In this document: positions 22,641-57,131 of the stretch, one piece after another
How positions within the stretch are numbered: the first letter of the stretch is position 1
Layout of the letters: every line of letters begins with the position of its first letter
Source of the DNA: Coriobacteriaceae bacterium
Lineage (GTDB): Bacteria > Bacillota > Clostridia > Oscillospirales > CAG-272
Direction: 5' to 3'
NCBI GenBank assembly: GCA_963617165.1
Contig: CAVEOF010000001.1
Location: forward strand, 3,006 to 67,005
DNA: 64,000 bases
Translations under genes and position numbers: made by a program
The notes under the pieces: model-generated
Database searches by the model: none
What the model was told of the DNA's origin: nothing
The model's input: only the letters and a program-made list of their open reading frames with translations

Positions 22641-22767
22641 GTCATTGATTTGCCATTGATCGCTTTTTGACTGGTCATTAACCCGTCATTGATTTGCCAT
22701 TGACTGCTTTTAACTTGTCATTTACCCGTCATTGATTTGCCACGATTTACATTAGATCTGTCATTGA
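22641..22767 (+). repeat. three ~44-bp direct repeat units containing nine phased GTCATTGA/GCCATTGA-type boxes
   Basis: Boxes start at 22641, 22652, 22674, 22685, 22696, 22717, 22728, 22739 (degenerate) and 22760. The offsets are 0, 11, 33, 44, 55, 76, 87, 98 and 119. Confidence 0.8.
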
Positions 22768-24817: not shown

Positions 24818-25205
24818 TCAGCGTTTTTTCTCTTCACATGAAAGAAAGCATCCTTTCCGTCCGGGAAGTCACGAACAAAATAAAAAGCGCGGATGGCACG
24901 TCATGATACGCCATGACATCTCGCGATATAACATAGTGCCCGCCTTCCGAAAATCATCACGGAGGTTTGCACGGATTCAAGAACCGCCCCGTAAAGACCG
25001 TCGCGAAAATTTACACAAATATAGAGCCTGTCTTTCAAAACCGTCAAAGAAGATCGTGCGGGTCATCAAGCCAACTTTCGAAAAGGGCGCGAAGGTTTGC
25101 ACACATCATAGAACCGCCTCCCGAAATTATCGCAAAGTGTGTGAGATTGCAAGGGATTGATACACGGCACGCAGTGCAGGGGATCGGAGCGCAGACAGGA
25201 ACGCC

Positions 25206-25373
25206 GAAGCAAAATGCAATGTGCGAGCGTGCGGTGCGCGGCGAGGCGAAATGCTGTGTGCAAGCGTGCGCGGCGAGGCGCCGAAGCGAAATGCTGTGTG
25301 CGAGCGTGCGGAGCTCGAGCGGGAGCGCGAAGCAAAGCAGTGCGCGAATGTGCGGTGCGCGGTGAGGCGTCGG
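25206..25373. repeat. four degenerate GC-rich tandem units (35-46 bp), core AAATGCTGTGTGCGAGCGTGCGG
   Basis: Units begin near 25206, 25248, 25283 and 25329. They lie just beyond the tuf terminator. Confidence 0.6.
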
Positions 25374-53019: not shown

Positions 53020-53961
53020 TTATATCTTGCGGCCGTAGCTATCATAGCGGGAGAGATACTTCCCGATCTCTTCGATGTAGAGGGACGCCATGCCGGAGGG
53101 AATACTGTTCTTCCTCTGAATGTATCCGACCTCCATGCTGCCCGTGGGGTTCTCGTCATCCGAGCGAAAGGGGACGGCAATATAGTCCGAGCCGTTCAGC
53201 TCCTCGCAGATGATCCCGGGACAAAGGGTATATCCGCCGAGACCGACCATCAGATTCAGAACGGTGGCACGGTCGCAGACCTTGATGGTGCGGGAATACT
53301 CGTTGGTGGAGAGGATCTCTTCCGCAAAATAAAAGGAGCTGTCCTCTCCTTGATCGTAGGAGATACAGGTATACTCGGTGAGCATATCGAAGGTGATCTC
53401 CTTCTCCTTCGCGAGTGGGTGTCCGCGCCAAAGATAGACGCACGCCTCACACCGAAGGAGGGGGTGAAACTCGAGACTTGCCGAGCGTAAAAGCTTTCCG
53501 ATCACCTGACGGTTGAGGTCCGAAAGTTGCAAAATGCCGATCTCGCTATATAATTTCGCGACGTCGTCAATGACCGAGCGGGTGCGGGTCTCGCGGATGG
53601 CAAACTCGTACTCATCGGTATCGGCATTTTTGACCGTCTCGACGAAGGCTTTGACGGCGAAGGAAAAGTGCTGCGTGGAGACGCTGAATTTTTTCTTATG
53701 GCTCGCGGTCTTTCCGTAATGCTCGAGCAGCTCGCGGTAGGGTTGATATACGCCCCTCGCATAGGCGAGGAAGTCCGCCCCCTCCGCCGTTAGGGTGACG
53801 CCCCGTCCCGTGCGGTGAAAGACCGTGATGCCGATCTCCCTCTCGAGGTCGCGGACGGCGCCCGTCAAGGAGGGCTGAGAGACATAGAGCTTTGTTGCCG
53901 CACGGCTGAAGGAGCCTGCCTCGGCAATGGTGATCGCGTATTTGAGTTGTTGCAGAGTCAT
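53020..53961 (-). CDS. LysR-family transcriptional regulator
   Basis: MTLQQLKYAITIAEAGSFSRAATKLYVSQPSLTGAVRDLEREIG is a wHTH region. The start is at ATG 53959-53961 after GAGGTG. Confidence 0.85.
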   Translation of the reverse strand: MTLQQLKYAITIAEAGSFSRAATKLYVSQPSLTGAVRDLEREIGITVFHRTGRGVTLTAEGADFLAYARGVYQPYRELLEHYGKTASHKKKFSVSTQHFSFAVKAFVETVKNADTDEYEFAIRETRTRSVIDDVAKLYSEIGILQLSDLNRQVIGKLLRSASLEFHPLLRCEACVYLWRGHPLAKEKEITFDMLTEYTCISYDQGEDSSFYFAEEILSTNEYSRTIKVCDRATVLNLMVGLGGYTLCPGIICEELNGSDYIAVPFRSDDENPTGSMEVGYIQRKNSIPSGMASLYIEEIGKYLSRYDSYGRKI

Positions 53962-53995
53962 AGACACCTCATAGGAAAAATTGATGGTTTCTTAT

Positions 53996-54024
53996 ATGAT
54001 ATCACATTTTCCTATAAGAAGCAA
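53996..54024 (-). promoter_or_regulatory. candidate promoter of the LysR gene (TTGCTT-17-TATCAT with TGn)
   Basis: Reverse complement reads ctcTTGCTTcttataggaaaatgTGaTATCATataag. Confidence 0.5.
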
Positions 54025-54034
54025 GAGGTTTGAA

Positions 54035-54069
54035 AATTATGAATTATGAATTAAGAATTAAGAATTAGA
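54035..54069. repeat. left AT-rich heptamer array (AATTATG x2, AATTAAG x2, AATTAGA)
   Basis: Read directly. It is the inverted orientation of the 54252-54300 array. Confidence 0.8.
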
Positions 54070-54073
54070 AGTA

Positions 54074-54182
54074 AGCCTTGCGTCGTTTTGAATAGAGCTT
54101 GCGTTTTGATTGCCCTTTCACTCCTTTCGGAGGGGCGGAACGAGGATTGCAAACGCAAGCTTTTTCAAAAACAAGCAAGGCT
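54074..54182. other. 109-nt extended imperfect hairpin (candidate structured RNA or MITE core)
   Basis: Pairings are AGCCTTGC/GCAAGGCT, GTTTTGAA/TTCAAAAC, AGCTTGCGTTT/AAACGCAAGCT and an apical CTCC-tttc-GGAG. Confidence 0.6.
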
Positions 54183-54251
54183 CTCATTTCATTCATAATT
54201 CTTAATTCATCATTATCCCTCGTCTGTCCGCCAACATATAAGCTTCGCACC

Positions 54252-54300
54252 AATTCTTAATTCATAATTCTTAATTCATAATTCTTAATTCTTAATTAAA
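54252..54300. repeat. right AT-rich heptamer array (AATTCTT/AATTCAT x about 7), overlapping the feoB stop codon
   Basis: Heptamers start at 54252, 54259, 54266, 54273, 54280, 54287 and 54294. A further short array lies at 54190-54210. Confidence 0.8.
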
Positions 54301-56434
54301 ACATCCTGTATATCGTCGTAACGAAAAAGCACAGGGCGAGCCCCAAGAGGAGGGGGAGGGCGAAGGCAAGGAGGGTATAGCGCAGGCTTCCCGTCTCGCG
54401 CTTTACGGTCAAGAGGGTCGTGGAGCACGGAAAGTGGAAGAGGGCGAAGAGTGTGGTCGTGATCACGGTGAGGGGCGTCCAGCCCGCATTCACAAAGATC
54501 TCGCGGATCTCGGCGACGGTGCCGACCTCGGCGAGGTTCCCCGTCGCGGTATACGCCATGAGCATTACGGGTATGACGATCTCGTTCGCGGGAAAGCCGA
54601 GGAAAAAGGCGATCAGGATCACGCCGTCCATGCCGAAGAATCTGCCGACGGGATCGAGGAATGCCGCGGCATACGAGAGAAGGCTCTGCTCCCCTACCGT
54701 GAGGTTGGAAAGGAGCCAGATCACGGCGCCCGCGGGAGCGGCGACCGCCGCCGCGCGTCCGAGCACGAAAAGCGTGCGGTCAAAGAGGGAGCGCACCAGA
54801 ACGCGCCCGATCTCGGGCTTCCGATACGGGGGAAGCTCCAAGGTGAAGGAGGAGGGCTCCCCACGCAGAAGCGTGCGGGAAAGAAGCCACGTCAGCCCGA
54901 AGGTGGCGAGCACGGACAGAAGGATCAGCGCGGTCAGAAGCAGCGCCACGGAGAGCGTCGTCCCCACCCCGCCGAGTGTCCCGACGAAAAAGAGGGACAG
55001 GAGGGTGATCATCATGGGAAAGCGTCCGTTGCAGGGCACGAGACTGTTCGTCAGAATGGCGAGCGTGCGCTCTCTGCCCGAGTCCATGATGCGACAGCCG
55101 ACAACGCCCGCGGCGTTACAGCCGAAGCCCATGCACATGGTCAGCGCCTGCTTCCCGCAGGCGCGGCAGGCGCGAAAGGGGCGGTCGAGGTTGTAGGCAA
55201 TGCGCGGGAGGTACCCCGCGTCCTCAAGAAGGGTAAACAGAGGAAAAAAGATCGCCATCGGAGGGAGCATGACCGAGACGACCCACGCGAGCGTGCGATA
55301 CACCCCGAGCACGAGAAGCCCGTGAAGCCACGCGGGCGCGCCGAGAAGTACGAAAAGATCGGTCAGGCGATCTTCCATATAAAAGAGCCCCGAGGACAGG
55401 AGGGCAGACGGGAGATTTGCGGCATAGACGGTGAGGAAAAACACAAAGCCGAGGAACAGAAGCATCAAGGGATAGGCGGTCCATTTCCCCGTCAGAAGGC
55501 GGTCAAGTCTCTCGTCCCGTCCCGCGGCGCGCCGCCTTGCCGTCCCGACGCAGGCGGAGGCGATCTCACCCGCGCGCTCGACGAGCGTACCAACGATCAT
55601 GTCGCGGTACATGTCGGTATCGATGCCCGCCATAAGTAGCAGTTCCTGCGCCTTCGCGACGGCGGATGAGATGTCCTCATCGGACAAAAGCTCTCGCCCG
55701 AGGAAGCTCTCCGCCTCGCGGATCAGGGGTTCGTCGCCTTCCAAAAGTCGCATGGAAAGCCAATGTATATTTACATTTTCGATATGTTTTTCGGATAGAA
55801 CGGAAACAACGTGTGCAACGGCGTCCTCGATCTCCTCATGGTATTGCGTCGCCGTCGGGTGGCAAAGCGCGGGGGCTCTGTCCACGGCATCGAGCGTTTC
55901 GCAAAGGGTGCGGAGCGTCGATTTTTTCCTCGCCGTCGTCCCGACCACGGGGACGCCGAGAATACGCGACAGGGCGGGAAGGTCGACATGCACGCCGCGC
56001 CTCCCCGCCTCGTCAAGGAGATTGACGCACACGACGGTGCGCTCGGTCACCTCAAGGGTCTGGAGGACGAGGTTCAAGTTACGCTCAAGGCAGGTGGCAT
56101 CGCAGACGACCACCGTCATATCGGCGCCGCCGAAGCATAGGAAATTCCGCGCGACCTCTTCCTCCGCCGAATGGGCAAGAAGCGAATAGGTCCCGGGAAC
56201 ATCCACGAGCGCATACGTGTTTCCCTTCGGGGAGGTCGTATATCCCATCGCGGAGGCGACGGTCTTCCCCGGCCAGTTCCCCGTGTGCTGATGCATCCCC
56301 GTCAGGGCGTTGAACACCGTGCTCTTCCCCACATTCGGGTTGCCCGCCAGTGCGACGGTCGGCACGCCGTCCCTTCCCTTCCGCGGTGCGTCGTCCACCG
56401 CGCCCCGTCCCACCGATTTTCTTGTCAGCCCCAT
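54296..56434 (-). CDS. feoB: ferrous iron transporter FeoB
   Basis: VALAGNPNVGKSTVFNALTG G-domain plus a polytopic C-terminal domain, 712 aa, with GGAG upstream. Confidence 0.9.
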   Translation of the reverse strand: MGLTRKSVGRGAVDDAPRKGRDGVPTVALAGNPNVGKSTVFNALTGMHQHTGNWPGKTVASAMGYTTSPKGNTYALVDVPGTYSLLAHSAEEEVARNFLCFGGADMTVVVCDATCLERNLNLVLQTLEVTERTVVCVNLLDEAGRRGVHVDLPALSRILGVPVVGTTARKKSTLRTLCETLDAVDRAPALCHPTATQYHEEIEDAVAHVVSVLSEKHIENVNIHWLSMRLLEGDEPLIREAESFLGRELLSDEDISSAVAKAQELLLMAGIDTDMYRDMIVGTLVERAGEIASACVGTARRRAAGRDERLDRLLTGKWTAYPLMLLFLGFVFFLTVYAANLPSALLSSGLFYMEDRLTDLFVLLGAPAWLHGLLVLGVYRTLAWVVSVMLPPMAIFFPLFTLLEDAGYLPRIAYNLDRPFRACRACGKQALTMCMGFGCNAAGVVGCRIMDSGRERTLAILTNSLVPCNGRFPMMITLLSLFFVGTLGGVGTTLSVALLLTALILLSVLATFGLTWLLSRTLLRGEPSSFTLELPPYRKPEIGRVLVRSLFDRTLFVLGRAAAVAAPAGAVIWLLSNLTVGEQSLLSYAAAFLDPVGRFFGMDGVILIAFFLGFPANEIVIPVMLMAYTATGNLAEVGTVAEIREIFVNAGWTPLTVITTTLFALFHFPCSTTLLTVKRETGSLRYTLLAFALPLLLGLALCFFVTTIYRMF

Positions 56435-56948: not shown

Positions 56949-57131
56949 GGAAAATTTATTTCTCCGAGAGATTCATTCTCTCCGAAGATCGAAAAAGCGA
57001 TTTCTCCGAGCAGTCCCCTTCGATCTCGCCGAAGATCGGAAAACCGATTCCTCCGGGCAGATTCCCTGCAAACATTCCGAAGATCGAAAAACTTATTCCT
57101 CCGAGCAGATCCCTGCGATCTCGCCGACGTC
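56949..57131. repeat. four tandem units of about 42-48 bp; the last unit is the 3' coding end of the HAD gene
   Basis: Units are 56949-56990, 56991-57037, 57038-57085 and 57086-57131, with core GAAAAnnnATTYCTCCGRGCAGnnCCC...CCGAAGATC. Confidence 0.75.

Follow-up and report, generated by a model that had tools for sequence, protein, structure and literature searches.

Inverted heptanucleotide arrays around a stem-loop in the feoB-lysR spacer of a probable Clostridia lineage

Tandem repeats built from seven-nucleotide units have been described in prokaryotes under more than one designation, and in the cyanobacteria they carry the name STRR. Heptamers constitute the most abundant intergenic periodic repeat in prokaryotes, and no clear functional clue is attached to them (bioRxiv 10.1101/309039). 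In the parts of the study by Mrazek et al. (2007) that are cited in two later reports (PMC4679880, PMC4692102), heptamers are given as the most abundant of the long simple sequence repeats (LSSR), and polymerase slippage is proposed as the cause. The GGGAATC arrays of Xanthomonas provide 70-75 convergent inverted heptamer pairs per genome (PMC4692102), and arrays of the unit TAACTGA have likewise been described (PMC4679880). At the hmw1A gene of H. influenzae, the array (ATCTTTC)n is transcribed, and the long hairpin to which it gives rise is cut by RNase III (PMC12721329).

The locus presented here, located between feoB and a lysR-family gene, belongs to this described and mechanistically unexplained class of intergenic heptamer arrays. 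The class is known and widespread, and it includes inverted pairs; this main context was missed in the preliminary description of the region. As in the LSSR, STRR, Xanthomonas and TAACTGA arrays, the units are 7 nt in length, are arranged in tandem in a few to tens of copies, and are positioned in intergenic DNA, often at gene ends, with length and sequence that vary from strain to strain. Convergent inverted pairs able to form stem-loops, which are frequent in Xanthomonas, are a further shared feature. The unit here, AATTCWT, is AT-rich, however, rather than G-rich, and the arrays flank a 109-nt hairpin core that is not itself a repeat. Unlike the repeat-rich genomes that have been described, the 64,000-nt stretch of DNA analysed here (hereafter the window) contains one array locus only, and no further (AATTNNN)n arrays were found elsewhere in it.

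The H. influenzae system resembles the present one in that a heptamer repeat of variable copy number serves as an arm of a long hairpin (PMC12721329). There the repeat is transcribed, and the RNA structure carries the effect rather than a protein operator, whereas here the corresponding structure is predicted from the sequence. In hmw1A the repeat lies in the 5'-UTR and pairs with a G-rich region; in the feoB-lysR spacer the arrays form both arms and occupy a 3' region that precedes the following promoter.

The genes feoB and lysR, together with homologues of metQ and metN, all lie on the minus strand according to a Pfam scan. The feoB gene (54296-56434, minus strand) encodes a protein of 712 amino acids with FeoB_N, FeoB_C, Gate and FeoB_Cyto domains. 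The LysR-family regulator (53020-53961, minus strand), with its HTH_1 and LysR_substrate domains, contains 313 amino acids when read from its ATG. The genes 3' of lysR match NlpA (metQ) and ABC_tran plus NIL (metN), and in related contigs a metI-type permease is next after metQ/metN. The predicted lysR promoter, as read from the sequence, occupies positions 53996-54024 of the minus strand and consists of a -35 element, TTGCTT (54019-54024), a 17-nt spacer, and a TGn-extended -10 element, TATCAT (53996-54001). The arrays are thus in non-coding DNA, with the feoB stop codon on one side and the lysR promoter on the other.

The whole insert, as delineated against sibling species, extends from 54030 to 54295 (~270 nt, or about 266) and comprises inverted array termini, a hairpin, a middle array and a unique block. 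The left, lysR-proximal array (54035-54069) reads AATTATG x2, AATTAAG x2 and AATTAGA; its orientation is opposite to that of the middle and right arrays, and its position is about -46 to -80 from the predicted lysR start site. The middle array (54190-54214), with units CATTCAT, AATTCTT, AATTCAT and CATT, is oriented as the right array and is separated from it by 37 unique nucleotides (block U, 54215-54251), to which, conspecific alleles aside, no similarity was found in the rest of the window or in any of the fetched loci. The right, feoB-proximal array (54252-54300) contains six AATTCTT/AATTCAT units followed by AATTAAA. Tandem Repeats Finder assigned all three a period of 7, with 6.0, 3.4 and 6.6 copies. 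The three arrays and the 109-nt hairpin thus lie where they were originally placed, and 14 matches to the 14-mer AATTCWTAATTCWT with at most 2 mismatches are present in the window versus 0.79 expected, 12 of them within the feoB-lysR spacer. The exact reverse complementarity first noted between the units of the left and right arrays was also borne out by the sequence.

The stop codon of feoB, TAA at 54296-54298 on the minus strand, falls within the final AATTAAA unit on the right, in accord with the overlap reported earlier. The array, in other words, supplies the stop codon of feoB. Reading AATTCTT/AATTCAT arrays in all six frames reveals stop codons in each of them, and the arrays found elsewhere suggest that such repeats may often provide the stop codon, as they do at feoB.

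The stem-loop core (54074-54182, minus strand) is built from arms that each consist of two ~19-nt modules, AGCCTTGCGTCGTTTTGAA and AGCTTGCGTTTTGAT, and its apex on the minus (gene) strand is CUCC-GAAA-GGAG. Its predicted folding energy is -47.6 kcal/mol as compared to -27.4 +/- 3.4 kcal/mol in shuffled controls (z = -5.95), and the region from 54020 to 54310 taken as a whole yields a z of -7.1. Several details given in the preliminary description require amendment. The long complementary arms are present, but the segment GTTTTGAA pairs through seven bases and then meets a bulge, rather than pairing through eight. The core is palindromic over the extent first assigned to it, yet the palindrome does not end there and continues into the left and middle arrays: positions 54042-54092 oppose 54164-54214 over 51 nt with 80% complementarity, so that the pairing of the middle array with the left array lengthens the hairpin. 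The best terminal arm pair, formed by 54030-54067 with 54258-54295, is 38 nt long and 89% complementary. Finally, the element is AT-rich, as stated, but the window around it is only moderately GC-rich, with a G+C content of 56%.

As in an intrinsic terminator, a stem-loop directly follows the stop codon. It differs from such terminators in its length of 109 nt, in its internal loops, and in that it is not followed by a U-tract with 5 or more U in 8. Indeed, the tail UACUUCUA contains 4 U in 8, and the element was not called as an intrinsic terminator in a scan. The same promoter and terminator scan of the element returned nothing above the level of shuffled sequences; note that it also missed the lysR promoter, the -35 of which is too weak for the tool.

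Contigs from four sibling species (L124, L125, L126 and L128) were reached through their FeoB homologues, which are 85% (L124 and L126), 80% (L125) and 79% (L128) identical to that encoded in the window. The order feoA-feoB-lysR-metQNI is retained in all four, which indicates that the adjacency of feoB and lysR is ancestral. The spacer between these two genes, 334 nt in the window, measures only 80 nt in L124, 99 nt in L125, 84 nt in L126 and 131 nt in L128, and neither arrays nor a large hairpin were found in any of the four. In L128, a small canonical terminator is located where the window has the element. Given these short, array-free spacers with conserved flanks, the ~270 nt at 54030-54295 are an insert specific to the species of the window, and on this sequence comparison the element is an insertion relative to the sibling species. 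Its flanks share just a trivial T-run (TTTT|AATT...AATT|TTC), and the native end of feoB appears to have been replaced. The lysR promoter lies outside the insert and is kept in all four sibling contigs. Also kept in all four species, which are without arrays, is a palindrome, ATAGGAAAA...TTTTCCTAT, at 53968-54018, whose arms (53968-53985 with 54001-54018) bracket the -10 element of lysR.

Variation within the species was followed in five assemblies belonging to a 90% FeoB cluster, namely the window, L154, L155, L156 and L416. The arrangement of array, hairpin and inverted array is present in five of five, and in a further contig of the same species, L123, an array begins right after the feoB stop codon and is followed by the contig end. 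The number and type of array units change between alleles: four distinct alleles, each with its own complement of units, are represented in the five assemblies, L416 being of the L155 type. The alignment reveals roughly 4 to 6 units in the left array across strains, CATCATT variants included. A 76-nt block corresponding to window positions 54191-54266, which spans block U and extends into the right array on one side and the middle array on the other, is carried by the window and L156 but not by L154, L155 or L416. Its distribution does not track the relatedness of feoB and lysR. L155 and L156 differ in the block, yet no two strains are closer to each other in feoB and lysR identity; the pattern fits either recombination or a deletion that has recurred between two directly oriented arrays. 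The preliminary description had called for a search of relatives for empty sites, additional copies and conservation. The spacers of the sibling species provide the equivalent of an empty site, and the element is carried by all five conspecific assemblies, among which no empty site was found; extra copies of the core did not emerge from the collections searched.

The hairpin folds at -44 to -48 kcal/mol in the four conspecific alleles tested. Identity between alleles across the hairpin is 90-94.5%, as compared to 85-95% at third codon positions of the flanking genes. Among the four alleles, which are close and few for a covariation analysis, there are no compensatory double changes, and of the paired cells altered six are kept as G-U wobble and four are broken. 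The hairpin sequence thus drifts at close to the synonymous rate and shows no compensatory changes; the fold is retained, but selection on the structure is not demonstrated. It is highly improbable, in our judgment, that the hairpin is an independent gene for a structured sRNA or a small protein. Its predicted structure is stable, and a 43-codon open reading frame runs through it on the minus strand, but an Rfam scan of 53500-54800 with E-values up to 10 gave a best E-value of 1.3 or worse, far below gathering scores, and hence no family match. Likewise, promoter-like sites are no more common than in shuffled sequences, and the four alleles exhibit no covariation. As for the reading frame, a comparison by hand of the window with L154 showed five nonsynonymous and two synonymous changes, and a 2-nt insertion in L155 shifts the frame. 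On these two grounds, the mostly nonsynonymous changes and the frameshift, a coding role was rejected.

Arrays of the same unit are abundant elsewhere. Three consecutive AATTCWT units were located at at least 120 loci (L003-L122) distributed over many phyla, with Bacteroidota, Cyanobacteria, Chloroflexia, Treponema, Lentisphaerae, Clostridia, Acidobacteriota and Patescibacteria among the taxa represented. Exact arrays among the matches listed number 201 with a period of 7, versus no more than 6 for periods 5, 6 and 8-11, and those of period 7 in the AATTCWT loci listed include units devoid of AATT, such as TAACTGA. In 53 of the 160 AATTCWT arrays among the matches listed, the stop codon of an open reading frame of at least 100 codons abuts the array or lies within it, a raw count that has no null model and is not used here as evidence. 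The notion that AATTCWT is a special cross-phylum motif was weakened by heptamers of matched composition, which are common too: in viral contigs, arrays of ATATCWT were found at 54 loci and of TTAACWT at 86, as compared to at least 118 for AATTCWT. The arrays of the window are therefore an instance of a general heptamer-repeat phenomenon. Inverted pairs surrounding hairpin-forming spacers are also observed in L021, L025, L050, L055, L068, L073 and L104. Adjacent inverted pairs number 11 across the 160 AATTCWT arrays among the matches listed, most of the arrays being solitary, and given this minority the inverted arrangement is not an automatic result of array formation.

One of these loci, positions 690-5710 of L050 (DASVQO010000194.1) from a Chloroflexia metagenome-assembled genome, contains hairpins whose arms are (AATTCTT)n/(AAGAATT)n and whose loops, of ~19 nt, are related. 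These hairpins fill the L22|S3, S17|L14, L24|L5, L5|S8 and S8|L6 spacers of a ribosomal protein operon and begin 0-3 nt past the stop codons. The sequences of these hairpins indicate a multi-copy family within one operon and dispersal within that genome.

The preliminary description had proposed that the arrays resemble operators bound by ribbon-helix-helix proteins, a suggestion that did not withstand the comparisons above. Cooperative operators for a ribbon-helix-helix protein of the omega type, for the LysR protein or for a nucleoid protein are suggested by the position of direct and inverted heptads near a promoter, an arrangement of 7-bp units that the arrays share with the omega (pSM19035) operators. 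The AATT core, in addition, is a narrow-minor-groove motif. The omega heptad consensus is WATCACW, however, and the unit in question is AATTCWT. The arrays are missing from sibling species that possess the same LysR protein and promoter, and from one conspecific strain to another they change in the number and kind of their units rather than being conserved with a regulated promoter. The very same units are found in phyla that are not related and within ribosomal operons, and composition-matched control heptamers are common as well. Pfam matches among the immediately flanking genes (FeoB, LysR, MetQ-like and MetN-like proteins, and two open reading frames without a family) included no ribbon-helix-helix protein. 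The conserved palindrome ATAGGAAAA...TTTTCCTAT is, judging from its retention and placement, a likelier candidate for a LysR autoregulatory site than are the arrays. We thus regard a role of the arrays as operators as very unlikely. The idea that they might contain Fur boxes was also dropped, since they are downstream of feoB and absent in relatives.

In a different regulatory role, the left array would act as a contingency element, phase-variable or graded: gain or loss of 7-bp units would modify an AT tract resembling an UP element, or shift its phasing, and would thereby adjust expression of lysR, and of metQNI. The left array adjoins the region upstream of the -35 element and varies from about 4 to 6 units by strain, and 7-bp repeats are known to tune expression of H. 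influenzae hmw1A (PMC12721329; see also PMC8262952). The same promoter functions without an array in the sibling species, however, and the arrays are positioned upstream of the core promoter, where the spacing between the -35 and -10 elements is left untouched. Such tuning accordingly strikes us as quite unlikely.

The hairpin core was not found a second time in the 64-kb window, nor did searches of ~100 kb from related loci and of metagenome, viral, plasmid and phage collections yield a further copy. A scan of metagenomes with the stem pattern returned 25 loci, all of which belong to unrelated palindromic families that share the 11-nt stem only. One such multi-copy family with the stem AGCTTGCGTTT is found in metagenome Ga0310694 (L129, L137, L141, L151 and L153), where single AATTCTTAA/TTAAGAATT units flank the palindrome. 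A second multi-copy family with this stem, also unrelated, is found in the human gut (L133, L135, L143, L145, L150 and L152) and has CCCGACGCGAGACGCGTCGCCCCCATTAG flanks.

The Logan contig L001 (SRR13434605) matches window positions 54065-51903 at 99.9% identity, and it joins the left array to a region upstream of nrdD (positions 1-1002 of L001) that is absent from the window. The breakpoint, 54065/54066, lies inside the array. The nrdD-side region contains a promoter-like sequence, TTGACA-17-TATACT, and a 16-codon open reading frame that ends in the array. As the order feoB-element-lysR is present in all five assemblies, L001 would represent either an array-mediated rearrangement or a k-mer chimera that arose by way of another, near-identical array elsewhere. 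Of the nrdD contigs only one is close, L157 (ENA k141_103422), and it carries an Illumina adapter, GATCGGAAGAGCGTC, at positions 1-20, and the assembly is thus contaminated at that end. The best named relatives of the NrdD protein are from metagenome-assembled genomes of Clostridia and Oscillospiraceae, with identities of 72-76%, and the window thus probably comes from a Clostridia lineage that is uncultured.

These results bear directly on the resemblance to a MITE that was pointed out at the outset. Part of that likeness holds: the insert is discrete, palindromic and AT-rich, its inverted termini are of the array type, and relatives have the equivalent of an empty site. What did not hold is membership in a multi-copy mobile family, given that the collections searched yielded no second copy of the core and that there is no clear target-site duplication. 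A MITE or another non-autonomous mobile element, with the heptamer arrays as terminal inverted repeats, brought to the feoB stop codon in a single event by a transposase whose gene lies elsewhere, would account for the 38-nt termini of 89% complementarity, for a size of about 266 nt with no conserved open reading frame, and for the array-free spacers of the sibling species. The dispersed hairpins with heptamer arms in the L050 ribosomal protein operon and the loss of homology in L001 exactly inside the left array are in keeping with it as well. That no second copy of the core was found in the window, the related loci or the collections named above speaks against it, as do the want of a convincing target-site duplication and of an empty-site strain among the five conspecifics. 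In addition, the termini are simple sequence repeats that differ between strains, unlike ends bound by a transposase. On balance, insertion as a MITE is doubtful.

A comparison with the REP/BIME, ERIC and MITE families leads to a similar point. Like them, the feoB-lysR element is palindromic and non-coding, is confined to the spacer between a stop codon and the signals of the next gene, is present or absent between related species, and is a plausible stabiliser of mRNA 3' ends. Those families, however, consist of many dispersed, related copies, with a cognate transposase in the case of the REPs and MITEs, whereas the collections searched held no second copy of the present core, and its termini are simple sequence repeats. 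The REP/BIME elements in particular number in the hundreds and are associated with the RAYT transposase; the 64-kb window does not contain one extra copy of the feoB-lysR core. As to the origin of that core, the present data fit either growth in situ or insertion of a mobile element.

A bolder extension of the mobile-element idea, and one that we consider a long shot, is that inverted arrays with their hairpins are a self-propagating intergenic element that crosses phyla. It would insert at or next to stop codons, supply the stop, spread within genomes, as in L050, and mediate rearrangements, of which L001 may be a case. On that view the feoB-lysR insert would represent its founder or a relic of it, present as a single copy in a Clostridia lineage.

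The explanation that we favor, with a confidence that is about even, is that of a palindromic insert, restricted to this lineage and based on unstable heptanucleotide repeats, that serves as a 3'-end structure and not as an operator. The stem-loop core of ~109 nt sits between the feoB stop codon and the -35 element of lysR, and the AT-rich AATTCWT arrays, inverted on its two sides, lengthen the palindrome. Slipped-strand mispairing, together with recombination from one array to another, may add and remove units, and intrastrand template switching at the palindrome may preserve or enlarge the inverted symmetry of the arrays. Since the insert follows feoB and precedes the lysR promoter, the feoAB message most likely includes it as its 3' end. 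In the RNA, the AU-rich array arms would form a duplex of about 40 bp within a long stem-loop. Such a transcript-end structure would act as a barrier to 3' exonucleases, as a substrate for RNase III, or as a partial insulator against read-through into lysR. Considered from its position and predicted fold, the element probably functions as a structured end of the feoAB message.

This locus provides a natural series, in which sibling species lack the element, five assemblies show four array states, an indel lies between arrays, and one junction may reflect an array-mediated rearrangement. It could serve to measure how heptamer arrays arise, how they change, and how they affect their neighbors, in this instance the end of an iron transporter message and the promoter of a regulator. 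For annotation, it should be borne in mind that a gene can take its stop codon from a heptamer array, and that such arrays can interrupt short-read assemblies or join them wrongly. As an example the element is instructive, and its interest is modest unless the mobile-element reading is true.

Several other tandem repeats were observed in the window. Positions 2343-2566 contain ~10 copies of the 22-nt unit ATCGGGAGCnTTCCnCAAACn, which was also scored with periods of 44 and 66. A 43-nt unit (GTCATTGATTTGCCATTGAC...) is repeated 2.3 times at 22641-22765, and a G+C-rich unit of 40 nt is repeated 2.8 times at 25202-25310. Lastly, 3.2 copies of a 47-nt unit are located at 56977-57127, between a HAD-hydrolase gene and feoA. 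This is the upstream region of feoAB, and the repeat could be regulatory.
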